Source of the DNA: a virus
Virus record (IMG/VR): IMGVR_UViG_3300029130_000018
Length of the DNA stretch: 43,040 nucleotides
Reading direction: 5' to 3' (one strand)
The translations under genes were made by a program, and so were the position numbers. The notes beneath the pieces were generated by a model. It worked only from the letters and a program-made list of their open reading frames with translations. It was not told where the DNA came from and did no database searches. This document shows, one piece after another, positions 3,238-25,483 of the stretch (positions are counted from its first letter, which is position 1; each line of letters begins with the position of its first letter).

Positions 3238-3239
3238 CG

Positions 3240-3464
3240 ATGGAATCTTGGCGGGCGGCGGACATAAAATGCCCGTACTACAAAAACTGCGACGACAACA
3301 GACGGCTTATAATCTGCGAGGGCATCATGGATCGGACGACTCTGAGTACAAAGTTCCGCCGCAGGAAGGACATGGCGAACCACATAGCGGCGAACTGCGA
3401 GCAGATCGCGTCTCCATGCGTTATACGCAAGCTGAACGACAAGAAATACGAAAACTTGGGGTGA
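3240..3464 (+). CDS. Hypothetical Cys-rich protein
   Basis: 74-aa ORF directly after 3237, with CPYYKNC...CEG...C...C spacing. Confidence 0.55.
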   Translation: MESWRAADIKCPYYKNCDDNRRLIICEGIMDRTTLSTKFRRRKDMANHIAANCEQIASPCVIRKLNDKKYENLG

Positions 3465-6057: not shown

Positions 6058-6058
6058 G

Positions 6059-8310: not shown

Positions 8311-8564
8311 TAAGCGTACACGCGGGGCTGACGGGGATAGACATAAAAGGCCATGCGCACTATGCGCCGCAGGGCGAAGACATTGTTTGCGCGGCGGCGT
8401 CGATACTGGCCATGACGCTGCTGGACATCTGCGAGGACGCGGAGGTCAAGCGCGAGGACGGGCACATCAGCATCAAGCACGGAGACCCCGCGGCGATACT
8501 CTTCGCGCGGCGCGGGTATAAGCTGCTGGCCGACGCGTATCCGGAGTTTGTGGAGGTAATATGA
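8307..8564 (+). CDS. prp: Prp-like cysteine protease (ribosomal-processing protease family, DUF464)
   Basis: GHAHYAPQGEDIVCAAASIL contains the His/Cys dyad motif. 85 aa. ATGA overlaps on both sides. Confidence 0.85.
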   Translation: MISVHAGLTGIDIKGHAHYAPQGEDIVCAAASILAMTLLDICEDAEVKREDGHISIKHGDPAAILFARRGYKLLADAYPEFVEVI

Positions 8565-10444
8565 CGGTTACAACGACAGGGCGCGCCGCATACCGCGGAG
8601 GTGCGAGCCATACGGGATATCTCGCGGGCTTCGAGACGGCAAACAAGCTCACCCGCGTGCTCCGCTACACCTTCACAACGCCCGCGGACGGCGTGAGCAA
8701 ACTGAGCTTCACGGGGGCACATCTGGCGCACAGTGCGTCGTACTCGTGGGGCGGGCTTAACTGGTACGCCACCACGTCGCCGACGTCACACGTAAACGCG
8801 GGCGCAGGCTCCGCGAGCTGCGGGACGCTGACGATCACCGGCAACGGCAAGGACTACGACATCTCCGCGGCGGAAGCGGCGGTCAACCTCCCTGCAAACA
8901 CTGAGGCGTACATATATATATTCCCCAATAACACAAATTACTTTTTATGGAATTTTGCGAACGTCGCAACCCTGAACATAACGACGGCGGCGGGCAGCTC
9001 GACGATCGCGGCGATAACGCAGACGGTCGAAACGCTGGGGACACTGACGGTGAGCCTTAACAAGGCGGTGGACGCGTTCCGCCACAAGCTGACGGTGACG
9101 GCGGGTGACAAGACGTTGTACACGTCAGAGCTGTTCGACGCCTCGCACAGCGTGACTGTGCCGAGATCGTGGTTTGACAGCTTCGCAGACGTCACGACGA
9201 TATCTGCCACGGCTACGGTAACGACGTACAACGGTGACACGGCAGTGGGCACGGCGAGCGCAGCGGTGACGATAACGGCGGACGACGGCATGAGGCCGCA
9301 GATATCCGAGGGCTGGGCAACGGCTGCACCGTACAACATCGGCGCAGTGGCAGGGCTGACGGGCTACATCGCGGGCTATTCGCAGGCCGAGATAAGCTTC
9401 GACGCCGCCAAGCTGACACAGGCGGCGGGGGCTGCGCTTGCAAGCGTCACAGTGACGTGCAGCGGCGTTACAAGCACTGCGGTACCTTACAGGACGCCCA
9501 TTATTCTCGACGCGGCTGACGTAGTGTGTGCGGCGACAGACAGCAGAGGCAGGACAGCGACGCAGACGATCCGCATCGAGCCGATGGCATATGCGCCGCC
9601 TACGCTGAGCCAAGTGCAGATACTTCGCTGCACGGCGGCGGGCGTGGAGGCCGAGGACGGCAACTACTACAGCGCAAAGGCGACGGCGACATTCAGCGCG
9701 CTCGGCGGCCAAAACACTCTGACGCTGACGGCGGCGCACAAGATACAGGGCGGCGTATACGGCACGGAGACGCCGCTCACGTCCGGCGAGACGGCAATCA
9801 TCGGCACGATATCCCCCGACAGCACGTATCAGGTGCGAATAACGGCGACGGATGCGCTCGGCAATACGGCGGTGACGGTGACGTCCCTGCCGACGCGGCA
9901 ATGGGCGCTGAAATTCCGCGCGGACGGACTCGGTGCGGCTTTTGGAAAAGCGCCGGAGCACAGCAAGGCGCTGGAAATCCCGGCGGACTGGCAGATATGG
10001 ATAGGCAGCGCAACGATAGCGGAGAGCATCAAGCAGTCGATATTGGAAAGCCTGAAGCAGACGATAATTGACGCGGTGCTCCCGGTGGGAATATACATAA
10101 GCCTCTCAGCAGCAACTGACCCGGCAACGCTCTGGGGCGGCGCGTGGGAGCGCGTGGATGAGGGGCGGACGCTTATATCAGCCGGCAGCACGTACACTGC
10201 CGGGAGCACGGGCGGCGAGGCAACGCATACCTTGATAAACTCGGAAATGCCTTCGCACAACCATGCTATCTGGTATCCTAATGAGAGCGCGGGGAACAAT
10301 TCGGCGCAGATTGGTTATCCGAGCGTTGCGAGTAAAAGCACCTACTACGCAGTTGGTTCTAATACGGGCGACGTCGGCGGCGGAGAAGCTCACAACAATA
10401 TGCCGCCTTATTTGGCGGTGTACATCTGGCACAGGATAGGATAA
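8561..10444 (+). CDS. Tail fibre / receptor-binding protein with a C-terminal phage tail-collar domain
   Basis: C-terminus GGEATHTLINSEMPSHNH...GGGEAHNNMPPYLAVYIWHRIG is the collar-domain signature. The N-terminal part is Thr/Ala-rich beta repeats. Confidence 0.8.
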   Translation: MTVTTTGRAAYRGGASHTGYLAGFETANKLTRVLRYTFTTPADGVSKLSFTGAHLAHSASYSWGGLNWYATTSPTSHVNAGAGSASCGTLTITGNGKDYDISAAEAAVNLPANTEAYIYIFPNNTNYFLWNFANVATLNITTAAGSSTIAAITQTVETLGTLTVSLNKAVDAFRHKLTVTAGDKTLYTSELFDASHSVTVPRSWFDSFADVTTISATATVTTYNGDTAVGTASAAVTITADDGMRPQISEGWATAAPYNIGAVAGLTGYIAGYSQAEISFDAAKLTQAAGAALASVTVTCSGVTSTAVPYRTPIILDAADVVCAATDSRGRTATQTIRIEPMAYAPPTLSQVQILRCTAAGVEAEDGNYYSAKATATFSALGGQNTLTLTAAHKIQGGVYGTETPLTSGETAIIGTISPDSTYQVRITATDALGNTAVTVTSLPTRQWALKFRADGLGAAFGKAPEHSKALEIPADWQIWIGSATIAESIKQSILESLKQTIIDAVLPVGIYISLSAATDPATLWGGAWERVDEGRTLISAGSTYTAGSTGGEATHTLINSEMPSHNHAIWYPNESAGNNSAQIGYPSVASKSTYYAVGSNTGDVGGGEAHNNMPPYLAVYIWHRIG

Positions 10445-10454
10445 GGAGGGCAAA

Positions 10455-11528
10455 ATGGCAACATACGAAGACGAACGAAAGAAACAGGAGCAGGCCGCGA
10501 TGAGCGGCACACAGCAGCAGAATACGCAGCAGCCCGCACAGCAGCCGGACAACACGCAGTATCAGGCGACCATGCAGGCGCTTGAGGGCGCGAAGACGCA
10601 GGCTCCCGTGTATGGCGGGCAGTATGACCAGCAGATACAGGATATATACCAGCAGATAGTCAACCGCAAGAAGTTCAGCTATGACGCGGCGAGCGATCCG
10701 CTGTTCCAGCAGTACAAGCAGCAGTATGTGCAGCAGGGGCAGCAGGCGATGCGCGACACGATGGGGCAGGCGGCGGCTCTGACCGGCGGCTACGGCAGCA
10801 GCTATGGGCAGGCTGCCGGGCAGCAGCAGTATGACGCGTACCTTCAGCGGCTCGGCGAGGTGCTGCCGGAGACTTACAGCATGGCGCTCAATCAGTACAA
10901 CGCCGAGGGCGACGCGCTGACGAACCAGTACGCGATGCTTAACAACATGGCGATGACCGACTACAACCGCTACCGCGACCAGCTCGGCGACTGGCAGTAT
11001 GACGAAGCGCTCAGGCGGCAGGACGAGGAGACGGCATACGGCAGGCAGCAGGATGCATACAACAAGCTGCTGTACCTCATCAACAACACCGGCTACTCCC
11101 CCACCGACGACGAGCTGACGGCGGCAGGGCTGACACGCGATCAGGCGGACAAACTGCTCTATATGTGGCAGCTGCAGAACGCGGGCGCAAGCGGTTCCGG
11201 CAGCGGCAGCGGGGGCGGCGGTCACTACGACACCGGCGGCGGAGGAAACGGCAGGGCGGACGTTGACGCGACAACGCTTGCCGGAATGAAACAGACGATA
11301 TACAACCTCTACAAATATTACGGCAAGGACGCGGCAGCGGACAGGCTCGACCAGTACGCAGGCCAGCTCAACGACGCGCAGTACGCGCAGCTTGTGCAGC
11401 AGGCGCAGGAGCTGATGAACGGCGCGGGGCAGGCAAAGAAAACCCCAACAATAAAAAAGCCGGGGCAGAAAAAGAAGAGCGGCGGCAGCGGCGGCTCCGG
11501 CAGACAGAACACGGCGGCAACAAGATAA
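10455..11528 (+). CDS. Gln/Tyr-rich virion-module protein, unknown function
   Basis: 357 aa with a GGAGGG RBS. Q-rich with Gly-Ser tracts and a basic C-terminus. Confidence 0.7.
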   Translation: MATYEDERKKQEQAAMSGTQQQNTQQPAQQPDNTQYQATMQALEGAKTQAPVYGGQYDQQIQDIYQQIVNRKKFSYDAASDPLFQQYKQQYVQQGQQAMRDTMGQAAALTGGYGSSYGQAAGQQQYDAYLQRLGEVLPETYSMALNQYNAEGDALTNQYAMLNNMAMTDYNRYRDQLGDWQYDEALRRQDEETAYGRQQDAYNKLLYLINNTGYSPTDDELTAAGLTRDQADKLLYMWQLQNAGASGSGSGSGGGGHYDTGGGGNGRADVDATTLAGMKQTIYNLYKYYGKDAAADRLDQYAGQLNDAQYAQLVQQAQELMNGAGQAKKTPTIKKPGQKKKSGGSGGSGRQNTAATR

Positions 11529-11543
11529 AAACGGAGGCGGAGC

Positions 11544-14500
11544 ATGGCTTACAATCCTTTCCGAGACGGCAAGCAGACGCAGAGCACGCAGACCGGGCGA
11601 GTGAATCCGTTCCGGCAGACCAGCGCGGACAGAAGCGACAGAGAGCGCGTGATGCGCAACTGGCAGAGCGACGCGGAGCAGCACGGCATATTGAACAATC
11701 CCCAGTATACCGACGAGGGCAAAGCGTATCAGCAGATGGCGCAGGAATACGCAAAGTACGGCACACAGTATCAGAACCAGCTCAAACAGGGCATGACCGG
11801 GCGGCAGTGGGCGGCTGACACGGCGCGGCGGCTTGAGGAGCTTACACAGCAGCAGAGAGCGGCACAGCAGACGGAACGGCGCAGGCAGGACGCGGACGCT
11901 ATAGGCGATCCGGGACTGTGGGTGACTACGACGGAGCAGTACGACGCACTGCCAGAGGCTCGCAGACAGGAGGAGGCGCGCAGGGCAAAGCAGCGCCCTG
12001 CCGTAAGCCTTGCTGACTACGACAAGCGCATAGCGGAGCTGCGCAAAGAAAAGGAATGGGCAGACTACTTTGCCGAGGCCGGACTGCGCGACGAGCAGGG
12101 CTATACAAGGGGCGTTATCAGCGGACGCACGGCGTATGACGGCGCTGCCGATAAGCGCAGGCGCATAGCAGAACTGGAAAACAGGCTTGTGACGCTCAAT
12201 CAGAACAGCGGCTGGGCGAGCACGGTGGAGCAGTCGGACGAGATCGAGCGTGAGCGGAACGCCATCCAGCAGGAGCTGGAATCTCTCGGCGCGGGCTACA
12301 AAAACGCGCAGCAGGCGGACTATGCCACGAGCTGGCGCAACGGTGTCCGGGATAACTGGACGGATGAAGAGCGCAGCAACTTTTACTACCTCTACAACGA
12401 CAATAAGGACGAGGCACAGGCTTATGCGCGGCGCATCAATGACAGATACGCTTATTCGGACGCGCAGGCGAAGAAGGAAAAGGTCGGCGAGTGGGCAAGT
12501 CAGAATTTCTGGACGGGCTTGGCTGGCACAGCGGCTTCCGTGGGGATGACCATGACGTCTCTTGCCGACACGCTTGACAGGACAAAAGAATATGCGGCGA
12601 CCGGAGACGTCTCGGCCAAATCCGGCCTCACTCCCGCGGACATAGGCATGGCGATGACGTCCGCAATTGCCTCGTCGCTGAACAAAAAGAGTGGGACTAT
12701 CAACGACAATGTGTGGGTCATCGGCGGCAAGGGCTTGGGCGACCTATACGAGACGGGGGTAAGCATCCTCAACTCCCTCGCATCTGTATACATGCTGGGC
12801 GGCGTGGGCACGTACGCCAACTTCTTCGGGCAGGCGAGCAAAACGGCCTACGAGGAGGGCATACAGCGCGGGCTCAGCGTAGACAAGGCGCTGACCTACG
12901 GCTACGCAAGCGGTGTCGCCGAGGTCGCGGGCGAGATGTTCTCAATAGAGCATCTGATAAAGATGAAGAACCCCTCTTCACTCAAGGGCATTATCAAGAA
13001 CATCTTCGTGCAGGGCGGCATCGAGGCAAGCGAAGAGTCGGCCACGACGTTGATGAACACGATATCGGACGCAATAATAAACGGCGACAAGAGCGAGCTT
13101 GCGAGCAACTACTACGCGCTGATACAGGCGGGTTACAGCCCTGCGGACGCTGAAAAGATTGTAATAGCGGACTGGACTCAGGGTGTTATGTATGATGCCT
13201 TGGGCGGCTTTGTGAGCGGCGTTGCAAGCGCCGGTGTCCACAGCACCGTGCAGGGCGGCATGACATACAAGGGCGATGCGCAGGAGCTTATCGACTACGC
13301 CAAGAGCGAGGGCGCAGACACCGCAGCGGGCAAACGTGCGCAGAAATATGAAAAGCGCGTACAGAGCGGGAAGCGCATGACGAACTATCAGGCGGGGACG
13401 CTCACGGAGCTTGCGCAGGAGGCCGTGGTCTCGAAAGACCTCGATAACATCCGCGAGGCCGTCGGCAAGCGGCTTGCCGCGCTCGGTGAAAACAGCTCAG
13501 CGCTCACGGAAGCCGTTGTGCGGCAGGCGGTGCAGCAGGAGGCAAAGGCGACGGACATCAGCGTCCCGAAGGTCACGGAGAAGCAGCGCGGCCTGATCCA
13601 GAACAGCAAGGCGGCAAAGCGCGTGCTCTCCGAGATGGATATCGGCAACATGCGCATGGAGACCGCGGCGGAGCTGAGCGGGCATGACGGCAGCCAGTAT
13701 CAGCGCTCTAACGAGTGGGCACGGGATATCGGCACACGCATCATTGCACCCGGCGAATACGGTGTACGCAGCACCAACACCGTGACCGCAGAGGAGAAGC
13801 GGGCTGACGTGAAGGTCGGCGACGAGAGTGGAAAGGTTGTCGGCTTCAAGGACGGCATGGCGCGCGTCGAGGTCACGGAGAACGGCAAGAGTACCATCCG
13901 GGAGGTAAAGCCCGACGACGTGCAGCAGCTCCCCAAGCAGACGCGCAGGCTGTTTGACGAGATATCCCGCTATGACGGCGACACGCAGGCGGCAATGTAC
14001 GCGGCGTATATGCCGGGGCAGGACATAGAAGCATACGTGCAGGCAGCGGACACTGCGATGAACCTCTACGGCGCGCAGACCAAAGCAACACTTGAGCAGG
14101 CGCGCAGTTTCGGCAAGGCGACCTTCCGGATGCTGAGCGACGCCCAGCTCGACGCGCTGATGCAGGCAGGGCGCAAGCTCGCGGAGCAGCGAAAAGCGGC
14201 GGCGGAGCGCACCGGCGAGAGCAAGGGCGAGGTCAAGCAGGGCAAGGTGTCCTACGACGGCGGCGAGGCCGACGGGCGCAAGCTCAAAGCCCCAAGCAAG
14301 GAAGCGATAGACCGCATGAGCGACGCCGAGAAGACCCTCGCGGAGGCGCTGACGGCTACGGGCGTGAACGTTGTGTTCTACGAGAGCGAGGCAAACGCCG
14401 AGGGCAGATACAGCGGCGCGCAGGGCATGTACTACAACGGCACGGTTTACCTCGATGTGAACGCAGGCATGAACAGCGTGGAGAGCGGGCAGCGGACGAT

Positions 14501-17500
14501 AGTTCTGACGGCAGCGCACGAAATGACGCACTTCATCCGCGAGAACAGCGAGGCCGGATATATAGCGCTGCGCGAGTTCATAACCGACAGGCTCATGCAG
14601 CAGGGGCTGGATATCAAAGAGCTTGTCACGCAGAAGCGCGCAAGAGAGAGCCGCGAGTTGAGCTATGACGAGGCCGTGGAGGAGGTAATAGCCGACGCAT
14701 GCGAGACGGTTCTGACGGAGCCAACGGCAATAAGGCAGCTTGCAAGCGATAATATGCCTCTGGCAAAGAAGATACGCAAGTGGCTGAATGATTTCTTCGG
14801 GAAAATCAAAAGCGCGTTTGCGGGGCTTGAAGCCGTCCACGACGAGGCCAAGGCAATGACCGAGTACATGGACGAGCTGCGGGCGATGTGGGACGACGCA
14901 CTCGCCGACGCCGTGCGGAACAGGGCAAACAAAAACGCCGCCGAAAACGGCGACGGGGCGAAGTACAGCTTAAGGAGCTATAGCGAGCAGCAACTTCGGA
15001 ACTGGGAAAACAGCAAGCGCATTGTCGTTTATAGCAGCGAAGCGCAACTACGTGAATTTATCAAGGACGCAAGAGCAGGCAGAATTGGCGGACGGAAAAT
15101 GTACTTCGGAATGGTTCCGCAAAATCTAGCGCAAAAGATAATGTCGGAGACGGGAATAAATGTCGATGGTTATAACTGCTCTCTCTCGGCATATGAGATT
15201 CAAAAGATTTTCAAAGACCACGGCAACGCCGCCACTGAGCGCCTGCGGGGTCAGCGCGCTGTTACCGAGGACGATGTAGCTGCAATCCCAGAGATTTTAC
15301 AAAATGCTGATACTATAGTTCCTTCTGACAAGAAGTATAATGGCAAGCCTGCCATACAGTTTACCAAGAACGGGAACGGCAAGGTGACTCTTGTCGCCGT
15401 TGTATCCGACAAACATCTGGACTTGTTTGTCCAGACAATGTATGCAGGCATAAAAAAAGGAAACCTTGCTACGCCGACGGGTGAACAAGCCCCCATCAAT
15501 ACGCCCGAAGCGAGCCGCAGTACAGTTTCCAATAACAGTATACGCTCCTCTTCCGAAAATAGCAATACCAAAATTAAAAAATCTGAGAGAGATGCTGAAT
15601 ACCTGAGCGCGGTGAAGCGCGGAGACCTTGAGACCGCAAGGAGCATGGTGAATGAAGCGGCAGAAGACGCTGAATACGACATCACCGCATATCACGTCAG
15701 CATGAATGGCGCGTTTAACGTTTTTGATAGAAACAGGCTGGGCGAAAATACTGTGGACTATGCAGACGACGCAGCGACAGCGGCAACGGCGTATCTCGGC
15801 TTCTGGTTCAGCGATCATGACGTATCGAAGCCAACGCGCAGCTATGGCATGATACCCGGTGACGCGAGGCAGTTCCGGTTGAAAGCGGAGATATTGTACC
15901 CCATAGCTTTGCAGACACTGCACGACGAGTTGCTCAATGAGTATATTTCAGAGGACGCGATAGAACAGTACTCCGCTGGTGAATATTCGGCTATACGTGA
16001 AGCCGCAGAGGAATACGCGGCAGAGCTGCAGCGGAGAGGCTATTCAGGGCTGGAAGTGTGGGACAGCGAACTTGGCGGGACTTCGTATGTTATGTTTGAC
16101 CCGGAGCAGATAAAATCCGCTGAGCCTGTCGTGTATGACGATAACGGCAAGGTCATTCCCCTGTCGGAGCGCTTTAATTCAAAAAGCCGAGATGTCCGCT
16201 ATAGTAACCGCGACGTTGACCTGACTGCGAAGTATCCGCAGCTCAACCTCAACGAGGACATATCGGAGCTTGACGGCGTACCCGCAATAGAGCTTACCGA
16301 CGGCAGCGTTCTGCCGATAACCGAGCGCGACGGCAGATACCCGACGCACGTATCCTTCATAGAAGCGAACCGCATAGACGTTGACGACCTCAAGAGCGGC
16401 GGCTGGATAGGCAACGGCGTATATGACCCGTCTTTAACCAGCGACACGCAGCGCTATATAGAGCGGCAGCAGGCGAGAAAACGCGTGGCGGAGCTGACGG
16501 GCAAGCAGTATGAGCAGTTCAGGTACAGTATGCGCGACGATGCCATGACCGACAGGGAACTTCTCGCGAGGGCGCTTGACAGCGTAGCGGCGACGGAAAG
16601 CGAAAGAAAGATTCTTGCGCAGTACCGCACCGAATTTGACCGGTATCAGGAGCTATACGACAAGCTGGACGATGCGCAGATAGAATACAGCGCGGCGCGG
16701 CGGGCGGTAGACGACGCATACGCTCAGGCCAAGCGCAGCAAGCTCACCGCAGAGGAACGCCGCAGAACAGAAAGCGCATGGCGCGAAAGAATAGGCGCGC
16801 TCAAGGCAACGCAGCAGGAGACACGGGAGGCGCGCGACAAACTGCTGAAAGAGGTAGACGCGCAGGACAGAAAGCTTCTCAAACTGCGCGCGATGAACCC
16901 AGTGAAAGACATGCTTTCCCGCGCAAGGGCAGATATGCGCGAGACTATCAAGGCAAGGCAGAGCAAAACCGACACAAGGGCAAAAGTGCGCGATATGGCG
17001 AAGAAGCTCAGCGACCTGCTCCTCAAGGAATCGAAAGAGAAACACGTACTGCTTGAGCTTCAGAAGCCTGTGGCTGAGGTTCTGGACATGCTCAACCTCG
17101 ACACCGTCAACGCGGCGGAGCGCGTCGCCAAATACGACGCGGCCATAGCAAAGACGACAGACCCGGAGATAAAGCGCGAGCTTGCGGAGACCCGCGACAG
17201 AATACAGGCGCAGGGCGACAGACTCAAGACTCGGCTGGACGCGCTGCACACGGCTTATCAGGCAATCGCAAACTCTGCCGACCCGACGGTGGCGAACGGC
17301 TACGACGAGAACATAGCCGCGAAAATGCAGGAGGTCTCGCAGCTCGTAGGAGATACGCCGCTTGTGAAAATGACGCAGGAACAGCTCGACGCGGTACACG
17401 ATCTACTCAAGATGACCTACACCGTCGTATCGAAAGCGAACAAGGCGTTTGTGCTGAACCAGAAAGCGGGCATTGAGGAGAGGGCGCAGGCAGAGATCGA

Positions 17501-20500
17501 CAGGCTCTCCGCAACAGAGGGGGCAGACCTCGGGCTCAAGCCGGTGCAGTTTGCGAAGAGACAGTTCTGGTCAATGCTCAAGCCCGGCGAAATATTCCAC
17601 AAAGTGGGCGGCGAGCTTGAGCAGGCTTACAACGAGGTACGCAAGGGCGAAGACGTCAGAGCACGGGACGTTGTAACGGCGCGCTCGTTCTTCCTGCAGG
17701 CGGCCGAAAAGCACGGATACTTCTCTTGGGCGCTTGAGGAAAAGCACGATTTCGTCTCGGCTCAGGGCAGACCGTTCAGCCTGTCGCTTGATGATATGAT
17801 GTCCGTTTACGCTACCAGTCGGCGCGAGCAGGGCAAGAAACATCTTGAGGCGGGCGGCATAGTGTTCGGCAAGAACGGAAAGATAAAGGTCAAGAAAAAG
17901 GGCGTCACGCTGACGATGTCGCAGATCAAGGCGCGGGCATACACGCTCGACGAACAGGTGCTCGACGAGATCATAGGCAAGCTCACGCCGGAGCAAAAGG
18001 CTTTCGTAGAGGAGATGGAAAACTGGCTTTCCACAAAACCCGCCGAATGGGGCAATGAGGTATCGCGCGAGCTGTACGGTATAAACCTGTTCAAGGAGAA
18101 AGTCTACTGGCCTATCAAGAGCGCGTCGGAGTACCTGCAAAGCCGGAGCGGCGACAGCGACAATGTGAAAATCAAGAACAGCGGATTTACGCGCAGCACG
18201 GTCGAGAAAGCCAACAACCCGATATACATAGGCGGCTTTGTGGACACATGGAGCCAGCACGTATATGAGATGGCGACGTATCACGGCTTCACGCTGCCGC
18301 TTGAGGACTTCACGAGAATATTCAACTACGCGACCAGCGCGAGCGACATAGAAAACGGCGCGAACTCTGTCAAGGCGATGCTTACAAACGCGTTCGGCTC
18401 GGAAGCGCCGGTGCAGCAAATAGAACTCCTGCTCAAGGATGTGAACGGCAGCGCGCGGTCTGACCCCACGACGGAGCTGATGAACAAGGGGCTTGCGTTT
18501 ATGAAGAAGTACGCGGTCGCCGGTTCGCTGTCGGTATCAATTCAGCAGCCCTCGGCAATAGCCAGAGCAACGGCATATATCGACCCGAAGTATTTCGCCG
18601 GGGAGAAGATAACCGCCGAGAAGCATAAGGAGCTGTGGGAGCACATGAAGAAGTACGCCCCCGTGGCCGCCATAAAGGAAATAGGCTATTTTGATCAGGG
18701 ATTGGGCAGAAGCGCCCGCGAGTGGATGACCGCGCGGGAATATGGCGGACTTGCGGAAAAGGCGAAGGGTCTCGTGACTGACAGCAACTACCGGAGCGAC
18801 GTTATCATGGCGCTTCCGGGGCTGATGGACGAATTGACATGGTGCTCCATCTGGCAGGCGGTTGAGCGCGAAGTAGCGGACACGACAAACCTCAAAACCG
18901 GAAGCGAGGAATTCAACAAGCGAGTCGGTGACAGGTTCACGCAGATCATAACGGAGACGCAGGTCTACGACTCCGTGTTCTCCCGAAGCGCGATGATGAG
19001 GTCGAAGGATGTCGGTGTCAAGATGGCGACGGCGTTCATGGCGGAGCCGCTGACGAACGTCAACATGGTAGTTGACGCGATAGACGACTTCCGAAACGGG
19101 CGAAAGGCGCTCGGAGTGCGAAAGCTAGGTTCTGTTGTTGCTTCCATGCTTCTCAACAGCATACTCGTGTCGTTCGTTTATGCGGCGCGCAACGACGATG
19201 ACGATAAGAGCTACATCGAAAAATATATAGCTGCGCTGACCGGGGAGCTGAAAGACGGATTCAACCCGCTGACGTATATCCCCTATATCAAGGACGTTGT
19301 GTCGATAGTTCAGGGGTACGACGTGGAGCGCAACGACATGACCATGATTGCCGACCTCTGGAATGCGTACACCTCGCTGAAGAGCGACAAGAAGTCCACG
19401 TACAGAAAAATTGAGGACTTCGCGGGGCGCATTGCGCAGATATTCGGCCTTCCGCTCAAAAACGTGATGCGAGATATGCGGGCGGCCTACTACACATACG
19501 ACACCATCGCAAACGGCGAAGAGACGACGTGGCAGGGCGCGCTTCAGGCGGTTGCCGAGGGATGGACAGGAGAAAGCCCCTCAAACTCTGAGCAGCTTTA
19601 CGACGCGCTGGTGAGCGGGAACGTGAAACAGGCAGACAGGGTAAAGGCGCGGTTTGAGGACGAGAGCGCTGCGCAGGCCGCGGTGAAGAAGGTCATCCGC
19701 GAGAAATACGCGCCGACAGACGGCGGGAAGCAGAGCATAGACAAGCAGACCGCTATAAAGCAGTTACAGGACTACGCCGGAATGAGCAAGCAGGAGGCAG
19801 AAAAGCAGGTGGCCAAGTGGACGGTCTCTCTGGCGTATGGCTTCGAGTACGGCGACACCAAAGACGAGTACCTTAACGGCAACATAACCATAGACAAGGC
19901 GAAGCGCGTGCTTATGGGAGCCGGAGCGACGGACATGGAGGCGGACGCCAAGACGCTGCAGTGGAAGTTTGAGAAGGACACCGGCATAGCCTACGACGAT
20001 ATGTCTGACGCATACGTGAGCGGGGATATCTCGCGGAGCGATGCGGTGAACTACCTCGTCAAGTACGGCAAAACATACAGGGCGGATGCGGAAGCGACGG
20101 TTCAGCAGTGGCAGTGCGAGAAGGACACGGGCTTCAAGTACAGCGAGCTGAAGGATTTATATGTTGCGGGGACAATATCGGCGGATCGCGCGGCGGCGCT
20201 GCGGAGCAAATACGGCGGAGCCTCAGAGGACGACGCAAAGTCAACCGTGCTGCAGTGGCAGTGTGTCAAGGACACCGGCATTGAATACTCGGATATCCGC
20301 AAGGCGTACGAGGAGAAACGCGTCTCCGGCGAGGCCGTTGAAAACATGCTGATGAAGTACGGCGGCAAGAGCAAGGACGACGCCGCTGCCAGACGCGAGA
20401 AATACGACTTCACCATCGCAAACCCCGGAACCGAGGACATATCCGATGCGGCGGTGCAGAAGTACAACGAGTCCGTAGCGGCGGCAGGCATAAGCGGGAA

Positions 20501-20696
20501 GGATTATTATACATCGTGGCAGATGTACAACCGCACCGAATCGGACTATGACGAAAACGGCAAGCCGATAAGCTACTCAAAGCTTTACAAGATTGCGGCG
20601 TACATCGACAGTCTGAACCTGACCAATGCGCAGAAGGACGCGATGTTCTGCGCGTTCTATACCGCGCGGAACCTGCGGCGAACCCCGTGGCACTAA
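11544..20696 (+). CDS. Giant polyvalent protein (3,050 aa): hydrophobic Gly-rich region, HExxH module, PBECR-like nuclease module, ART-PolyVal-like module, long coiled coil, large conserved domain, four C-terminal repeats
   Basis: A single uninterrupted ORF with an RBS. Motifs AAHEMTHF, IQKIFKDHGN...VTEDDVAAIPEIL and PEQIKSAEPVVYDDNGKVIPLSERFN. See findings. Confidence 0.85.
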   Translation: MAYNPFRDGKQTQSTQTGRVNPFRQTSADRSDRERVMRNWQSDAEQHGILNNPQYTDEGKAYQQMAQEYAKYGTQYQNQLKQGMTGRQWAADTARRLEELTQQQRAAQQTERRRQDADAIGDPGLWVTTTEQYDALPEARRQEEARRAKQRPAVSLADYDKRIAELRKEKEWADYFAEAGLRDEQGYTRGVISGRTAYDGAADKRRRIAELENRLVTLNQNSGWASTVEQSDEIERERNAIQQELESLGAGYKNAQQADYATSWRNGVRDNWTDEERSNFYYLYNDNKDEAQAYARRINDRYAYSDAQAKKEKVGEWASQNFWTGLAGTAASVGMTMTSLADTLDRTKEYAATGDVSAKSGLTPADIGMAMTSAIASSLNKKSGTINDNVWVIGGKGLGDLYETGVSILNSLASVYMLGGVGTYANFFGQASKTAYEEGIQRGLSVDKALTYGYASGVAEVAGEMFSIEHLIKMKNPSSLKGIIKNIFVQGGIEASEESATTLMNTISDAIINGDKSELASNYYALIQAGYSPADAEKIVIADWTQGVMYDALGGFVSGVASAGVHSTVQGGMTYKGDAQELIDYAKSEGADTAAGKRAQKYEKRVQSGKRMTNYQAGTLTELAQEAVVSKDLDNIREAVGKRLAALGENSSALTEAVVRQAVQQEAKATDISVPKVTEKQRGLIQNSKAAKRVLSEMDIGNMRMETAAELSGHDGSQYQRSNEWARDIGTRIIAPGEYGVRSTNTVTAEEKRADVKVGDESGKVVGFKDGMARVEVTENGKSTIREVKPDDVQQLPKQTRRLFDEISRYDGDTQAAMYAAYMPGQDIEAYVQAADTAMNLYGAQTKATLEQARSFGKATFRMLSDAQLDALMQAGRKLAEQRKAAAERTGESKGEVKQGKVSYDGGEADGRKLKAPSKEAIDRMSDAEKTLAEALTATGVNVVFYESEANAEGRYSGAQGMYYNGTVYLDVNAGMNSVESGQRTIVLTAAHEMTHFIRENSEAGYIALREFITDRLMQQGLDIKELVTQKRARESRELSYDEAVEEVIADACETVLTEPTAIRQLASDNMPLAKKIRKWLNDFFGKIKSAFAGLEAVHDEAKAMTEYMDELRAMWDDALADAVRNRANKNAAENGDGAKYSLRSYSEQQLRNWENSKRIVVYSSEAQLREFIKDARAGRIGGRKMYFGMVPQNLAQKIMSETGINVDGYNCSLSAYEIQKIFKDHGNAATERLRGQRAVTEDDVAAIPEILQNADTIVPSDKKYNGKPAIQFTKNGNGKVTLVAVVSDKHLDLFVQTMYAGIKKGNLATPTGEQAPINTPEASRSTVSNNSIRSSSENSNTKIKKSERDAEYLSAVKRGDLETARSMVNEAAEDAEYDITAYHVSMNGAFNVFDRNRLGENTVDYADDAATAATAYLGFWFSDHDVSKPTRSYGMIPGDARQFRLKAEILYPIALQTLHDELLNEYISEDAIEQYSAGEYSAIREAAEEYAAELQRRGYSGLEVWDSELGGTSYVMFDPEQIKSAEPVVYDDNGKVIPLSERFNSKSRDVRYSNRDVDLTAKYPQLNLNEDISELDGVPAIELTDGSVLPITERDGRYPTHVSFIEANRIDVDDLKSGGWIGNGVYDPSLTSDTQRYIERQQARKRVAELTGKQYEQFRYSMRDDAMTDRELLARALDSVAATESERKILAQYRTEFDRYQELYDKLDDAQIEYSAARRAVDDAYAQAKRSKLTAEERRRTESAWRERIGALKATQQETREARDKLLKEVDAQDRKLLKLRAMNPVKDMLSRARADMRETIKARQSKTDTRAKVRDMAKKLSDLLLKESKEKHVLLELQKPVAEVLDMLNLDTVNAAERVAKYDAAIAKTTDPEIKRELAETRDRIQAQGDRLKTRLDALHTAYQAIANSADPTVANGYDENIAAKMQEVSQLVGDTPLVKMTQEQLDAVHDLLKMTYTVVSKANKAFVLNQKAGIEERAQAEIDRLSATEGADLGLKPVQFAKRQFWSMLKPGEIFHKVGGELEQAYNEVRKGEDVRARDVVTARSFFLQAAEKHGYFSWALEEKHDFVSAQGRPFSLSLDDMMSVYATSRREQGKKHLEAGGIVFGKNGKIKVKKKGVTLTMSQIKARAYTLDEQVLDEIIGKLTPEQKAFVEEMENWLSTKPAEWGNEVSRELYGINLFKEKVYWPIKSASEYLQSRSGDSDNVKIKNSGFTRSTVEKANNPIYIGGFVDTWSQHVYEMATYHGFTLPLEDFTRIFNYATSASDIENGANSVKAMLTNAFGSEAPVQQIELLLKDVNGSARSDPTTELMNKGLAFMKKYAVAGSLSVSIQQPSAIARATAYIDPKYFAGEKITAEKHKELWEHMKKYAPVAAIKEIGYFDQGLGRSAREWMTAREYGGLAEKAKGLVTDSNYRSDVIMALPGLMDELTWCSIWQAVEREVADTTNLKTGSEEFNKRVGDRFTQIITETQVYDSVFSRSAMMRSKDVGVKMATAFMAEPLTNVNMVVDAIDDFRNGRKALGVRKLGSVVASMLLNSILVSFVYAARNDDDDKSYIEKYIAALTGELKDGFNPLTYIPYIKDVVSIVQGYDVERNDMTMIADLWNAYTSLKSDKKSTYRKIEDFAGRIAQIFGLPLKNVMRDMRAAYYTYDTIANGEETTWQGALQAVAEGWTGESPSNSEQLYDALVSGNVKQADRVKARFEDESAAQAAVKKVIREKYAPTDGGKQSIDKQTAIKQLQDYAGMSKQEAEKQVAKWTVSLAYGFEYGDTKDEYLNGNITIDKAKRVLMGAGATDMEADAKTLQWKFEKDTGIAYDDMSDAYVSGDISRSDAVNYLVKYGKTYRADAEATVQQWQCEKDTGFKYSELKDLYVAGTISADRAAALRSKYGGASEDDAKSTVLQWQCVKDTGIEYSDIRKAYEEKRVSGEAVENMLMKYGGKSKDDAAARREKYDFTIANPGTEDISDAAVQKYNESVAAAGISGKDYYTSWQMYNRTESDYDENGKPISYSKLYKIAAYIDSLNLTNAQKDAMFCAFYTARNLRRTPWH

Positions 20697-20703
20697 TACG
20701 CGG

Positions 20704-20735
20704 ACACACTGGGAGAAATCCCAGTGTGTTTTTAT
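20704..20735 (+). terminator. Rho-independent terminator
   Basis: ACACACTGGGA-GAAA-TCCCAGTGTGT followed by TTTTTAT. Confidence 0.8.
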
Positions 20736-20756
20736 ATTTTTTTGAAAAATTTTCGC

Positions 20757-20800
20757 GTTTTGGGGTTAGAGAAATGAGAGCGGGATTTGTTATCATAAAG
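20757..20800 (+). promoter_or_regulatory. Conserved late-operon motif, copy 2 (GGGTTAGAGAAA-N8-GGATTT-N2-TATCAT)
   Basis: Same blocks and spacing as 3483-3525. It precedes the scaffold and capsid genes. Confidence 0.45.
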
Positions 20801-20846
20801 CTAAGAGTCGTGGGCTTAACCCAGAGAATAAACAAGGAGGCATCCT

Positions 20847-21872
20847 ATGCACACAAAATTTGACTTCGACCTCCAGCTTTTTGCCGAGGGCGGCGCACCC
20901 GCAGGCGAGGGCGGAGGAGAAGCAACGGGCGAAAGTACTGCCGACGCCGGGCAGAGTTTTGAAGCAAGACTTGAGGCCTTGAACGTACCCAAAAGCAAGA
21001 TAAGAAAGGGCGCATACAAGAATGCCCCGACACCCGCGGCACCTGCACAGCAGGAGGAGCCGCACGAGAAGGAGCCGGAGCAGGAAGAAAGCGGAGCCGC
21101 CGTCCGCAAGAGCTGGGATGAGGTCAAGGCAGAGTACAAGGCGGAATTTGACGCAGAGATGCAGGGCACGATCAAAAGACGGCTGAAGAACAGCGACGCA
21201 GAGCTTGAGACACTGCGCGCGAAGGAAGCCGCGGCCGCGCCGCTGTATGACTATCTGGCCAGCCGCTACGGACTCGATGCCGCTAACCTGAACGTGGAGG
21301 AGCTTATACAGAAGTTCCGCGAAGACGACGCCATGTTCGAGGAGGACGCGGCGAGAATGGGGACAGACGCAGGCACGGCCAAAAAAATGATTCTGGCCGA
21401 ACAGGACGGCAAGCGCAAGGCGCGCGAAGATGAAGCCAACCGGCAGGCACGGCAGAAGGAACTGGAGGACGCATTCAAGCGTCAGCAGGCTTCCAGCCAT
21501 TTCGACGAGCTGCGTAGGCAGGGCGAGGAGCTGAAGAAAGAGTTTTCGGACTTCGACCTTGCGGCAGCAATGAGCGACGAAGCGTTCGTGAAATTCACGC
21601 AGCCGGGGAGCAACATAAGCGTACGCGCGGCGTATCTGGCACTGCATCCGGAGGTGCAGGAGCAGCGCGTGCAGCAGGCAGCAGCAAAGGCAACGGAGGC
21701 TGTTTCCGCTTCGGTCGCCGCCAACAGGGCGAGGCCGAGGGAAAACGGCAGTCAGGCCGCCACGCTTGCGACAAACGACCCCAGAAACATGACGAAAGAG
21801 GAACGCGCGGCACTGCGTAAGAGAATTTACGCCGCCGCCTACAACGGGGAAAAGCTCCCGTTAGGAGGCTGA
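20847..21872 (+). CDS. Scaffolding protein with a Prp-type N-terminal leader
   Basis: Acidic, coiled-coil, Ala/Glu/Lys-rich protein immediately upstream of the capsid gene. N-terminus MHTKFDFDLQLFA|EGG. Confidence 0.75.
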   Translation: MHTKFDFDLQLFAEGGAPAGEGGGEATGESTADAGQSFEARLEALNVPKSKIRKGAYKNAPTPAAPAQQEEPHEKEPEQEESGAAVRKSWDEVKAEYKAEFDAEMQGTIKRRLKNSDAELETLRAKEAAAAPLYDYLASRYGLDAANLNVEELIQKFREDDAMFEEDAARMGTDAGTAKKMILAEQDGKRKAREDEANRQARQKELEDAFKRQQASSHFDELRRQGEELKKEFSDFDLAAAMSDEAFVKFTQPGSNISVRAAYLALHPEVQEQRVQQAAAKATEAVSASVAANRARPRENGSQAATLATNDPRNMTKEERAALRKRIYAAAYNGEKLPLGG

Positions 21873-21895
21873 CCCCATGAGATGAAAGGAAATAT

Positions 21896-23008
21896 ATGAA
21901 CAAGTTTTTTAACCTTCAGTTTTTCGCCGACGCGGGTACGCTTGTAAACGCTACCGGCAACTATGTCAACGCGGGCACCGGCACGACCACCGCGTTTGAC
22001 GGCACCAACACCCTCGCACCCGAACTCAAGGCGTTCTACGACACCGAGCTGCTTGAGAACGCCAGAGTTGAGCAGTTTTACGCTCAGTTCGGCAAGAAGC
22101 AGCCCCTCCCCAAGAACCACAAGGGGCAGGTGGAATGGCGCAAATGGAACACCTTCGAGAAGGCATCCAAGCTGACCGAAGGCGTTATCCCCACCGGCCA
22201 GAAGTTCGGCGTCAGCTCGCTGACCGGCAGCATCGACCAGTACGGTACTTACACCTCCATCACCGACAAGCTGGAGCTTCGCGCCTACGACGACGTCATC
22301 CTCGGCGCGACCGAGGAGATGGGCGCTTCCGCCGCGGAGACGCAGGAGAAGCTGATCCGCGACGCGCTGCTCGTCGGCACCAACGTCCTTTACTGTGACA
22401 ACGTCGACAAGGATACCGGTGCGGTCATCGGCACTCCGACCAGCTGTGCGACTATGGGCGCAGGCGGCAGCTCTGCCAGCGGCGGCAGCTCCACTCCTGA
22501 CGGCTGGGCGCTGCTTACCCCCGCGATGATCAACAAGGCCGTGACCATAATGAAGAAGAACCGCGTCCCGCGCATCAACGGGCGCTACTACGCCGTCATT
22601 CACCCGTCCGTTGCGCATGACCTGCGCGAGAGCGACGGCTGGATCGAGGCGCACAAGTACGCCGCACCCGAGGAGCTGTTCAACGGCGAGATCGGCGAAC
22701 TGCACGGCGTCCGCTTCATCGAGGATGCGTTTGCCCCTGTTCTCGGTGGCACCACCTACAAGAACAAATCCGAGGGCGTGACCTACGCGACCTACTTCTT
22801 CGGCAAGGACTCCTTCGGTATCATCGACCCGGAGGGCGGCGCGCTGGAGATGATAGTCCACGACAAGGACGAGATCGGCGGACCGCTGAACCAGTTCAGC
22901 ACCATCGGCTACAAGTTCGAGACGAACGGTGCGACTATCCTCTATCAGGAGCGCATGCTCCGCGTGATGAGCGTGTCCACCTTCTCCGCAACTGACGCGG
23001 CCAACTGA
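21896..23008 (+). CDS. Major capsid protein, N4-gp56 family (HK97 fold), with a Prp-type leader
   Basis: ELKAFYDTELLENARVEQFYAQFGKKQPLPKNHKGQVEWRKW...LTEGVIP matches the N4-gp56-type pattern. N-terminus MNKFFNLQFFA|DAG. Confidence 0.9.
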   Translation: MNKFFNLQFFADAGTLVNATGNYVNAGTGTTTAFDGTNTLAPELKAFYDTELLENARVEQFYAQFGKKQPLPKNHKGQVEWRKWNTFEKASKLTEGVIPTGQKFGVSSLTGSIDQYGTYTSITDKLELRAYDDVILGATEEMGASAAETQEKLIRDALLVGTNVLYCDNVDKDTGAVIGTPTSCATMGAGGSSASGGSSTPDGWALLTPAMINKAVTIMKKNRVPRINGRYYAVIHPSVAHDLRESDGWIEAHKYAAPEELFNGEIGELHGVRFIEDAFAPVLGGTTYKNKSEGVTYATYFFGKDSFGIIDPEGGALEMIVHDKDEIGGPLNQFSTIGYKFETNGATILYQERMLRVMSVSTFSATDAAN

Positions 23009-23722: not shown

Positions 23723-25483
23723 ATGCCGACATTCCCATATTTGGACGCGCAGACCACACAGCGCGACACGACAGACTCGTTTTACGGCTACAATCACCAG
23801 ACGAAGATAGGCAAAGGCGAATTCTACGAGACCCGGAACCTGAGCACAGACCACACGCCGATGCTTGCGCCGCGCAGGCCGCGCGGGATTACTGAAGTGA
23901 GCGGGGAGCTGCAAGGGATAATAGAGAAAGACGCGCTCGCGTACGTTGCGGGCGGAACGCTCTATTACAACGGCACTGCGACGCCCGTGACGGGACTTGC
24001 AAGCGGCTCTAAGCAGCTCGTAAGCATGGGGGCATATATAATCATATTTCCGGACAAGGTCTACTACAACACCGCAGACGGCGCAGACTACGGCAGCATA
24101 GAGGCGACGTTCAGCACGACCGGAAGCGTAAGTTATGCGCTGTGCCGCGCTGACGGCGACGAGTATACCACACCGACGATATCGGCAACGGAGCCGGACA
24201 ACCCGCAGAATCTTGACCTGTGGATAGACACAAGCTCCACGCCGCACGTGCTGCGGCAGTATGGCAGCGCGGCGGGAACGTGGGCGGAGATCGTGACGGC
24301 GTACACCAAGCTGACGTTCTCCACGCAGGGGCAGATACCGGCGCTGTTTGCGAAATACGACGGCGTGACCATCAGCGGCGCAAGCTTCGCTGACGCGAAC
24401 GGGGACAAGATTATCTATGCCGTCGGCGGCGAGGCGGGCAAGGTGGCGGATTATATCGTCGTCGTGGGGCTGCTGGAGCAGGCATACAGCGACGAGACGA
24501 GCGATATCACGATCAAGCGCAGTGTGCCGCAGATGGACTATGTCTGCGAATGCCAGAACCGGCTATGGGGCTGCTATTACGGCAACGACGGCACGCAGAA
24601 CCTCAACGAGCTTTACTGCTGCGCACTCGGCGACTTCAAAAACTGGCGGCAGTATCTCGGCCTCAGCACAGACAGCTGGACGGCTTCCGTCGGCTCGGAC
24701 GGAGTATGGACGGGATGCGTCAACTATCTGGGCAGCCCACTATTTTTCAAGGAAAACCGAATACACCGCATAACCGTGTCTTCGACGGGGGCGCACAGAG
24801 TAGCGGAGACGGTAGCGCGAGGCGTCCAGCGCGGGAGCGGCCGGAGCCTTGCGGTCGTCAACGAGACGCTGTACTACAAGTCCCGCGAGGACATATGCGC
24901 GTATCAGGGCGGCTTCCCCACGGGCGTAAGCGAGGCGCTTGGGCAGGAGCTGTACAGCGATGCGGCGGCCGGAGCCGTGGGCAGCAAGTACTACATTTCC
25001 ATGAAGGACAAGGCCGGAGGCTGGCATCTGTTCTGCTTCGACATCTCGAAAACGCTGTGGATGCACGAAGACGAGCTGCACGGCGAAGCCTTCGCGCGCG
25101 TGGATGACGAACTGTACTGCATTGCCGGCGGGAAGCTTGTCGGCCTGCTGGGCTACGGCGGAACGCGTGAGGCGGATGTCAGCTGGGAAGCGGTCAGCGG
25201 GATTATGTACTATGAGTACCCCGGCAATAAATACATATCGCGCTATGACATCCGGCTGAACATGGCGAAGGGCGCAAAGTTCGAGGTCTACATCGAATAC
25301 GACAGCACAGGCGTGTGGCAGCGCGGCGGAAGCGCGACGGCGTACAGGGAGGGCACGACAAGCTATATGTTCCCGATACGTCCGCGCCGCTGTGACCATA
25401 TGAGGCTCAAGCTGTGCGGCACCGGAGAGAGCCGAGTGTTCTCAATCGCGCGAATCCTGGAGATAGGGAGCGACTACCGATGA
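23723..25483 (+). CDS. Large virion/tail structural protein (586 aa, beta-rich)
   Basis: GAGG RBS and a repetitive beta-strand-like sequence (YYNGT, YYKS, YYIS, LYCIAGG). The call rests on position in the tail module. Confidence 0.7.
   Translation: MPTFPYLDAQTTQRDTTDSFYGYNHQTKIGKGEFYETRNLSTDHTPMLAPRRPRGITEVSGELQGIIEKDALAYVAGGTLYYNGTATPVTGLASGSKQLVSMGAYIIIFPDKVYYNTADGADYGSIEATFSTTGSVSYALCRADGDEYTTPTISATEPDNPQNLDLWIDTSSTPHVLRQYGSAAGTWAEIVTAYTKLTFSTQGQIPALFAKYDGVTISGASFADANGDKIIYAVGGEAGKVADYIVVVGLLEQAYSDETSDITIKRSVPQMDYVCECQNRLWGCYYGNDGTQNLNELYCCALGDFKNWRQYLGLSTDSWTASVGSDGVWTGCVNYLGSPLFFKENRIHRITVSSTGAHRVAETVARGVQRGSGRSLAVVNETLYYKSREDICAYQGGFPTGVSEALGQELYSDAAAGAVGSKYYISMKDKAGGWHLFCFDISKTLWMHEDELHGEAFARVDDELYCIAGGKLVGLLGYGGTREADVSWEAVSGIMYYEYPGNKYISRYDIRLNMAKGAKFEVYIEYDSTGVWQRGGSATAYREGTTSYMFPIRPRRCDHMRLKLCGTGESRVFSIARILEIGSDYR

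Follow-up and report, generated by a model that had tools for sequence, protein, structure and literature searches.

We analysed IMG/VR virus record IMGVR_UViG_3300029130_000018, a 43,040-nucleotide (nt) stretch of phage DNA that we refer to as the window, and found that near-identical phages exchange effector cassettes within a conserved frame of one giant protein of 3,050 amino acids (aa), whose gene occupies 21.3% of the genome. We interpret this product as a polyvalent protein in which a conserved carrier frame holds a central, exchangeable array of effectors and which would be packaged in the virion and injected together with the DNA, a reading to which we assign a probability of roughly 0.6. 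Packaging, ejection, processing by a protease and the targets of the effectors are the parts of this reading that we infer. The giant protein typifies a known class, although it has been little studied itself; what is new, and was overlooked in an initial annotation made from the letters of the DNA, is the strain-level swapping of cassettes at a conserved junction together with the large family of its conserved C-terminal domain (C-domain).

A conserved frame with exchangeable cassettes

The homology search returned 545 proteins, and frame and cassettes were analysed in the best 120 homologs, anchored on both sides. These homologs were 83-100% identical to the query, many of them over only 46-57% of its length and with differing Pfam sets. 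In all 120, the N-terminal frame (N-frame) measured about 1131-1141 aa and the C-terminal frame (C-frame) exactly 1386 aa, with a variable region of 322-1009 aa between the two. Splitting and clustering of this variable region yielded about 12 module families in 20 architectures. The families comprise PBECR3, ART-PolyVal (in two subtypes, sometimes duplicated), LPD3, LPD23 together with a further HExxH, MuF_C of two types, Methyltransf_23 and several modules without a family; orthologs carry PF18798, PF18838, PF18819 and PF13489 in the cassette slot, and the unnamed cassettes had no match in PHROGs. The ADP-ribosyltransferase (ART) cassette is present or absent among relatives, and the PBECR3 cassette is replaced by other modules.

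The same exchange could be followed in the DNA of three variant genomes (L003, L004 and L005), whose flanking DNA is 95.6-98.5% identical to that of the window. Identity broke at giant-protein aa 1139, 1328, 1351, 1518 and 1661, which are module boundaries; the break at aa 1139 was seen against L003 and L004, and identity to L005 resumed at aa 1661. The content of guanine and cytosine reached its minimum, 0.469, in the PBECR3 cassette, as compared with 0.57-0.65 in the frame, a drop that agrees with recent import of this cassette.

Three cassettes occupy the variable region of the window protein (Table 1). The PBECR3 model (PF18812) scored 64.4-67.2 bits against a cut-off of 30 and was covered from position 3 to 108 of 115; the cassette that contains it ends in a low-complexity linker, SIRSSSENSNTKIKKSERD (aa ~1328-1350). 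For ART-PolyVal (PF18760; cut-off 31.2 bits), the whole protein scored 30.5 bits and a 450-aa segment reached 36.2 bits; H, Y and D candidates for an H-Y-D active site were seen by eye only. The third cassette had no match in Pfam or PHROGs. In the profile searches that the initial annotation had proposed as a test of its polyvalent assignment, PF18812 thus lay above threshold and PF18760 above it on the segment. The assignment itself holds: the window protein combines PBECR3 and ART-PolyVal with a zincin-like HExxH domain, and relatives swap in LPD3, LPD23, MuF_C and methyltransferase modules.

The cassette boundaries bear a short junction peptide, before which S/N/T/K-rich low-complexity stretches stand. 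The pattern [KRATV][YF]SxR occurs three times in the window protein, compared with 0.32 times in shuffles, and 0 of 300 shuffles reached three. We also counted the motif in 63 family representatives at <=50% identity, chosen for possession of both the HExxH and the C-domain anchors (mean length of the between-anchor region, 1106 aa). When the count was limited to the variable region, leaving out the conserved C-domain motif LYAYSKREQA, these representatives held 1.37 motifs per between-anchor region as against 0.09 in shuffles, an approximately 15-fold enrichment. The extended junction consensus reads ...(F)(D/N)P..(D/N)PDI[KR][YF]SxR[DE]. Because the motif persists at <=50% identity, its retention points to selection on the junction peptide, beyond DNA micro-homology that eases recombination. 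The searchable literature held nothing relevant on this motif.

The gene itself is intact. As the initial annotation had claimed, it is a single open reading frame (ORF) of 3,050 codons that fills about 21% of the genome and has a ribosome-binding site and a terminator. The identical protein (P0001) is present in nr, JGI, ENA and Logan, on six contigs from independent sources, and over 100 intact relatives, 2,847-3,532 aa long, were found. Relative to the three variant genomes, the ratio of non-synonymous to synonymous substitution rates (dN/dS) was 0.054-0.069 in the C-terminal 1386 codons and 0.11-0.13 in the first 1120 codons, values that indicate purifying selection. The gene could in principle be an artefact, either a multi-gene assembly chimera or a mis-read tape-measure-like gene, and its size is indeed unusual for a 43-kb genome and its nr name is 'chromosome segregation ATPase'. 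However, the six contigs, the intact relatives and a dN/dS of 0.05-0.13 speak against a chimera, an outcome that the initial annotation had named as a threat to its own claim; no tape-measure family in Pfam, PHROGs or NCBIfam matched the protein, and the nr name fits a coiled-coil composition match. We regard an artefactual origin as practically negligible. The database names of the protein and its relatives look misleading more generally ('chromosome segregation ATPase/protein' in nr, 'RNA binding exosome subunit' in JGI, 'Nuclease' in UniProt/BFVD) and probably stem from coiled-coil or single-module matches, the charged helical region probably being the reason for the nr name.

Table 1. Features of the giant gene, its protein and the surrounding phage genome (nt, position in the window; aa, position in the giant protein)
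Feature	nt	aa	Strand	Remarks
TerL	4020-5495			phage gene
Portal, P22/SU10-type	6484-8310			phage gene
Prp-type cysteine protease, 85 aa	8307..8564		+	PF04327, precomputed annotation; directly after portal
Fibre-like protein	8561-10444			DUF859 and Gp10_C
357-aa gene (unk357)	10455..11528		+	directly 5' of giant gene
Ribosome-binding site GGAGG	11533..11537		+	6 nt 5' of ATG, read from sequence
Giant ORF, polyvalent protein	11544..20696		+	ATG start, 3050 aa and stop, without internal stop
Q/R/A-rich N-terminal region		1-~300		by composition
Duplicated peptide NPFR	11553..11615	4-7 and 21-24	+	in Q/R-rich N-terminus
G/A/S/T-rich, mildly hydrophobic block	12501..13268	~320-575	+	43% G/A/S/T; N-frame
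Zincin-like HExxH domain	14181..14960	880-1139	+	HEMTH at aa 992-996, nt 14517-14531; end of N-frame
Junction 1, AKYSLR	14958..14975	1139-1144	+	N-frame/first cassette boundary
Cassette 1, PBECR3, predicted RNase	14961..15593	1140-1350	+	Pfam match aa 1191-1302
Junction KKSERD		1345		between cassettes 1 and 2
Cassette 2, ART-PolyVal ADP-ribosyltransferase module	15594..16211	1351-1556	+	Pfam match aa 1382-1527
Junction VRYSNRD	16194..16214	1551-1557	+	
Cassette 3, ~105-aa module VDLTAKYPQLNL...	16212..16517	1557-1658	+	in 110/120 closest relatives
Junction FRYSMRD	16518..16538	1659-1665	+	C-frame boundary
Charged Arg/Glu/Lys/Ala helical, coiled-coil-like region	16536..17213	~1665-1890	+	40-44% charged
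Conserved ~830-aa C-domain	17214..19706	~1891-2721	+	family hallmark; mostly alpha-helical
Transmembrane-grade helix SVVASMLLNSILVSFVYAA	19131..19187	2530-2548	+	KD19 1.83; in C-domain
Four tandem ~48-aa repeats	19797..20378	2752-2945	+	pairwise local-alignment z 6.7-23 against shuffles
C-terminal tail, ~105 aa	to 20693		+	after repeats
Intrinsic terminator	20702..20741		+	13-bp stem, 4-nt loop and T-run at 20702-20731; 6 nt 3' of stop codon
341-aa phrog_13908 protein, scaffold candidate	20847-21872			3' of giant gene
Major capsid protein (MCP)	21896-23008			phage gene
586-aa homolog (p586) of phrog_511 'internal virion protein'	23723-25483			phage gene
Tyrosine integrase	31145-32413		-	other arm of genome

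Domains of the frame

The list of modules in the initial annotation proved essentially right. The Q/R-rich N-terminus, the HExxH module, the PBECR module and the four C-terminal repeats were all present on checking, and the ~105-aa module between the ART module and the coiled coil had been overlooked. The Gly/Ala-rich block was found as described in composition, but its hydrophobicity (KD19 at most 1.19) stayed below transmembrane (TM) grade, and we rejected it as a set of TM segments. The Arg/Glu/Lys coiled coil exists but measures ~225-290 aa instead of about 400 aa, and the large conserved domain is likewise real but larger than first drawn. No model in Pfam or NCBIfam covered any segment of the frame, and NCBIfam gave no match for five segments of the protein or three neighbouring genes. 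RNA polymerase, helicase and methylase domains were not detected in the window protein by Pfam or PDB sequence searches, and crAss001 gp36, the sole PDB sequence match of the whole protein, was rejected on account of its non-significant E-value (0.098).

The Q/R-rich N-terminus begins with a short duplicated peptide. A doubled N-terminal peptide, with its copies 20-40 aa apart, also occurs in relatives (P0122, P0126, P0137, P0154, P0167 and others); the peptides differ by lineage (DYRSKYMKKYV twice, SFEEWVR twice), and the duplication itself is kept. This element may be a bivalent docking signal.

The domain that closes the N-frame is best described as zincin-like. It was present in at least 133 of 255 family representatives, and in 42 sequences at 20-70% identity the H, E and H of the motif and a Glu about 55 residues downstream were nearly invariant (columns T110/H113/E114/L115/H117/I119 and E168/A171/D172, with the conserved Glu at aa ~1047). 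MPTase-PolyVal (PF18818) was matched weakly by 2 of 8 diverse members (best E-value 2.6e-4), and other members gave weak matches to YgjP-like, DUF6782 or DUF3810 metallopeptidases; the profile of the domain found nothing among PDB sequences. An AlphaFold2 (AF2) model of the domain (predicted local distance difference test, pLDDT, 84.6; predicted template-modelling score, pTM, 0.84) consists of a beta-sheet, the HExxH helix and a Glu-bearing helix, and this order of strand, HExxH helix and Glu helix is what we take to be the gluzincin layout. In a Foldseek search of the PDB with this model, 9 of the top 11 matches, all short of significance, were zinc peptidases (BACCAC_01431, anthrax lethal factor, PPEP-1, IrrE).

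The C-domain is the hallmark of a very large family. In the phrog_22978 profile, aa 1743-2747 matched positions 2290-3265 (E-value 7e-234) and the G/A-rich block (aa 378-573) matched positions 356-572 in colinear order (E-value 4e-11). A 900-aa C-domain query retrieved 4,099 clusters (50% identity) at E<=1e-3 and 2,801 at E<=1e-30, almost always near the C-terminus of proteins of 2,500-4,650 aa. Among the 255 representatives, the coiled coil was seen in 187, the C-terminal repeats in 115 and the G/A block in 54, counts that are lower bounds because many representatives are fragments. An alignment of the C-domain in 55 sequences (35-50% identity) contains 76 invariant columns. Searches of 50,697 phage records returned nothing for the giant gene by megablast and, for the C-domain by tblastn, one uncultured faecal fragment at 31% identity.

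In the AF2 model of the C-domain (pLDDT 76, pTM 0.69), helices predominate and a single small subdomain is built of beta structure. One stretch of it, aa ~2579-2649 (nt 19278-19490; NPLTYIPYIKDVVSIVQGYDVERNDM...FGLPLKNVMRD), is strongly conserved yet has pLDDT <50 at model residues 689-759, and may need a partner in order to fold or may switch its conformation. Foldseek found no fold match in the PDB (best E-value 0.21, TM <=0.12), and dynein, MATE transporters and nucleoporins were rejected as generic helical matches. Ejection proteins of the T7/P22 type were likewise absent from the PDB sequence matches of the protein and from the Foldseek matches of the C-domain. In BFVD, by comparison, there were 80 matches at E<=1e-3, the best of which (E-values 1e-41 to 1e-25, TMq 0.58-0.65) are C-terminal pieces of other giant proteins of uncultured phages, with names such as 'PolyVal ADP-ribosyltransferase', 'MuF C-terminal domain-containing', 'Large polyvalent protein-associated domain-containing' and 'Nuclease'. 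A 'structural protein' of Tenacibaculum phage Gundel_1 was not used as experimental support (TM 0.29; its paper shows no proteomics for it). With 830 aa and neither a curated model nor a solved fold, the C-domain represents one of the larger uncharacterised phage structural families.

A single helix of the whole protein, aa 2530-2548 in the C-domain, reaches TM grade. It precedes an acidic RNDDDD stretch, it falls in AF2 helix 631-659, and it is kept in the family consensus as 'ILNSILVSxVYAxRDDDEDE'. The suggestion of the initial annotation that the protein forms a channel is weakened by these results, since the hydrophobic block is not TM-grade and the sole TM-grade helix sits in the C-domain.

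Gene neighbourhood, phage and host

Both ends of the window carry an exact 99-bp direct repeat (1-99 and 42942-43040). Exact end repeats are typical of circularly closed metagenomic assemblies, and we conclude that the genome is circularly closed with a true length of ~42,941 bp. The tyrosine integrase shares its arm of the genome with genes for a repressor-like protein, Gam, an exonuclease and a replication initiator; the phage is temperate, as judged by this integrase and repressor-like gene arm. Tape-measure, tube, sheath and polymerase families had no match among the ~20 larger ORFs scanned, and with its P22/SU10-type portal and no tape-measure, tube or sheath match among these ORFs the phage looks podovirus-like.

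The giant gene starts 15 nt after the stop of the preceding gene (at 11528) and its stop codon lies 6 nt before the sole plus-strand terminator-like site in 10300-22000. The 150-nt spacer that follows contains no ORF; apart from the terminator, it has only a promoter-like site at 20767-20796 (+), between terminator and scaffold gene, whose -10 is of the extended (TG) type. From this site, the scaffold-MCP block may be expressed as a separate transcription unit, which would agree with the different gene order in relatives. The placement of the gene between portal and scaffold, as first annotated, is correct, but three genes, encoding the Prp-type protease, the fibre-like protein and unk357, intervene after the portal. 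The argument that the gene lies after the portal, where MuF-type proteins sit, is thereby weakened, as it is by the lack of a Phage_Mu_F domain and by the different arrangement in relatives.

In 38 loci from bacterial metagenome-assembled genomes (MAGs), the common order is MCP - g121 - p586 - (p257) - (fibre) - unk357 - giant. A homolog of unk357, 36-61% identical, stands immediately 5' of the giant gene in 18 distant loci. It follows from this order that the conserved partner of the giant gene is unk357 plus the virion block, not the portal, and we take the slot in relatives to resemble that of internal virion proteins in T7-like layouts. The unk357 product has a Q-rich N-terminus and a Gly/Ser-rich run at about aa 240-265; it had no match in Pfam, PHROGs or NCBIfam, and its PDB matches, which involved Gly/Ser linkers only, were rejected as low-complexity artefacts. 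No PDB sequence matched p586, after which come the endolysin and the holin.

These observations invite a structural explanation, in which the protein is an ejection protein whose frame forms a DNA conduit across the Gram-positive wall and membrane and whose cassettes are secondary passengers. Short-tailed phages need a trans-envelope conduit, and neither a tape measure nor a tail tube was seen among the scanned ORFs. The frame, not the cassettes, is the most constrained part and occurs in more than 4,000 clusters, and it offers a conserved TM-grade helix and a G/A-rich block; relatives hold the gene in the internal-virion-protein slot near the phrog_511 homolog, and a conduit of this kind has been proposed for gp47 of phage phi24B. 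However, no solved ejection or core protein resembles the model in fold, the hydrophobic block falls below the TM threshold, and the BFVD relatives are labelled sipho-, myo- and podovirus, so that the fold is not tied to short tails. We consider this explanation unlikely as a replacement for effector delivery, with which it is compatible; both can be true.

A late cytoplasmic role in the producing cell, with an unpackaged multi-enzyme serving host shut-off, superinfection exclusion or assembly, would also suit a protein whose packaging is not proven here and whose coiled coil and repeats could form an intracellular scaffold. Takeover enzymes made late from a virion operon would come too late, however, and the linkage to virion genes is kept in distant relatives despite changed gene order; moreover, phi24B gp47 and the phage polyvalent proteins known so far are associated with virions. 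We give such a role very little chance.

The virion genes also speak to the host. The MCP begins with MNKFFNLQFFA/D ('LQFFA') and the 341-aa protein with MHTKFDFDLQLFA/E ('LQLFA'); N-termini of the LQFFA/LQLFA type are L27-type sites, which Prp cleaves in Firmicutes and in phages of Firmicutes. The motif supports the 341-aa protein as the scaffold and indicates a Firmicutes host, and it suggests that head maturation is Prp-dependent, the phage Prp being a possible processing enzyme of virion proteins. One Prp-like motif also lies inside the giant protein, shortly before the C-terminal repeats ('IKQLQDYA/GMSK', aa 2739-2746, nt 19758-19781). With a chance expectation of roughly 0.1 under a loose post hoc pattern, and not being evident in the family consensus, it is possibly a chance match. 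Prp was rejected as the junction protease, its motif LQxFA being unlike the junction motif. The MAG contigs that bear relatives of the giant protein come from human and ruminant guts and belong to Faecousia, Ructibacterium, Acutalibacteraceae, Oscillospiraceae and other Clostridia; some relatives sit inside contigs of 80-247 kb, and large contigs with candidate integrated copies include Eubacterium sp. CAG:251 FR889121 and Clostridia MAG JAFVUB010000003. The window belongs to a phage of gut Oscillospiraceae.

Two further observations concern genome structure. Two small minus-strand genes (149 and 91 aa; gene calls taken from an identical contig) lie at 5608-6334 between TerL and portal, inside the plus-strand virion operon; they had no Pfam match, are conserved in L003-L005 and resemble a moron-like insertion. 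On the 122-kb MAG contig JAFTXX010000014.1 (L023, L024), two giant-gene blocks with identical match coordinates stand ~40 kb apart, which could reflect a tandem prophage or a concatemer assembly.

Proposed course of infection and comparison with known systems

Under the polyvalent reading that we prefer, the giant gene would be transcribed late as the last gene of a terminase-to-giant unit, and a few copies of its product would enter the procapsid through the frame. At infection, the protein would pass the portal and the short tail together with the DNA, and the injected enzymes would act in the new host before phage gene expression, where they could weaken defences based on RNA or protein, or tilt host physiology or the decision for lysogeny. 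The modules may be freed through cleavage of the [KR][YF]SxR[DE] junctions by the built-in zincin. In a more far-reaching version, which we put forward only tentatively and consider doubtful as a whole, the protein would be the type example of a giant virion protein family of gut Oscillospiraceae phages with more than 4,000 clusters; its chassis (docking peptide, G/A block, gluzincin, coiled coil and new-fold C-domain with a membrane-grade helix) would serve as conduit and vehicle alike, the protease would cut the [KR][YF]SxR[DE] sites after injection to free a strain-specific enzyme cocktail, and the same sites would be recombination joints.

Several points weigh against the polyvalent reading. 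The presence of the window protein or its homologs in virions has no direct support, and records of cultured phages are practically devoid of the family. There is no MuF or portal-fusion domain of the type that anchors known packaged polyvalent proteins, the C-domain resembles neither solved ejection or core proteins nor any other PDB entry in fold, and the window protein shows no homology to phi24B gp47 (BLASTP E-value 0.1; hhalign probability 0.5%). The zincin-like assignment is statistically insecure, as the HExxH domain of the window itself had no PF18818 match and its model no significant Foldseek match in the PDB (best E-value 0.21). Conserved linkers could instead serve folding, docking or recombination. 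Finally, because the phage is temperate, RNase and ART activities that it injects cannot simply kill the host.

If the protein is injected, gut Oscillospiraceae phages bear strain-specific, rapidly reshuffled, ready-made RNases, ADP-ribosyltransferases, methylases and peptidases. The catalogue of cassettes would in that case be a read-out of the defence systems of poorly cultured gut bacteria and a source of anti-defence activities.

Delivery of this kind has known precedents (see also PMC5512222). P1 DarB/DdrB, T4 Alt and IPI* and the N4 virion RNA polymerase are made late, packaged in the head and injected as enzymes that act before phage expression, and the N4 polymerase and P1 DdrB also bear an MPTase-type peptidase; no homology of DarB/DdrB, Alt, IPI* or the N4 polymerase to the window protein has been shown. 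The window protein also resembles the core proteins T7 gp14/15/16 and P22 gp7/16/20 in that its relatives take the slot after the capsid and tail genes, in its mostly alpha-helical make-up and in the short tail of its phage. Unlike these proteins, it is far larger and carries cytoplasm-directed enzymes, and neither the PDB sequence search with the protein nor the fold search with its C-domain matched their solved structures.

A second comparison is with the MuF toxins of temperate gut Firmicutes phages, whose variable toxin domains have been proposed to be delivered into hosts (Jamet et al. 2017; PMC5576092). The window protein shares with them the temperate gut Firmicutes phage, the location in or near the packaging/head module and variable domains of toxin type. 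It could accordingly be seen as a phage-borne polymorphic toxin with which lysogen or phage would kill or inhibit competitors, with variable toxins and matching immunity, since RNase and ART modules in such a phage are the setting of MuF toxins (PMC5576092) and MuF_C is found in some relatives. On the other hand, Phage_Mu_F (PF04233) had no match at E<=1 in the whole protein or in segments, the variable part is internal and multi-module instead of a single C-terminal toxin, the spacer after the gene holds no immunity-sized ORF and there is no adjacent immunity gene, a secretion signal was not seen, and the window protein is about ten times larger. We therefore find a toxin of this type quite improbable.

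The strongest experimental parallel is gp47 (vb_24B_48) of the Shiga toxin (Stx) phage phi24B, an LPD-rich protein of 2,807-2,811 aa with a metallopeptidase domain. Proteomics detects it in abundance in virions, the cryo-electron microscopy map does not show it, and its authors propose that it is encapsidated and acts in ejection (bioRxiv 10.64898/2026.04.10.717836). Like the podovirus-like window phage, phi24B is temperate and short-tailed and encodes its giant protein at the end of the virion block; it too has a gene directly upstream, here of ~420 aa, for which we found no homology to the window counterpart. In contrast to the window protein, gp47 serves a Gram-negative host and does not contain the junction motif. 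Because homology is not detectable, gp47 supports the mechanism by analogy only.

The comparison that defines the class is with the polyvalent proteins of Iyer et al. 2017 (J Bacteriol; PMC5512222), who predicted that those of phages are packaged in capsids, viewed their MPTase domains as a device that processes the chain into units, and reported ortholog mosaicism for Helicobacter jhp1044. The window protein likewise unites several effector-type domains in one polypeptide, these domains belong to the polyvalent network, and its gene lies in the virion-gene context of a portal-terminase phage, flanked by TerL, portal, MCP and scaffold candidate, a context that is the same in relatives. It thus shares with the proteins of that study the giant multi-domain build, the location among virion genes, the PBECR, ART-PolyVal (presumably HYD-type) and zincin-like domains, and the mosaicism of orthologs. 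It differs from them in that neither Pfam nor NCBIfam has a model for its carrier frame, in that the frame is not fused to MuF or portal, and in that its family swaps cassettes between ~98% identical phages at a defined [KR][YF]SxR[DE] junction. The junction motif and the built-in zincin make the idea of Iyer et al., that of a polyprotein processed into units, biochemically testable.

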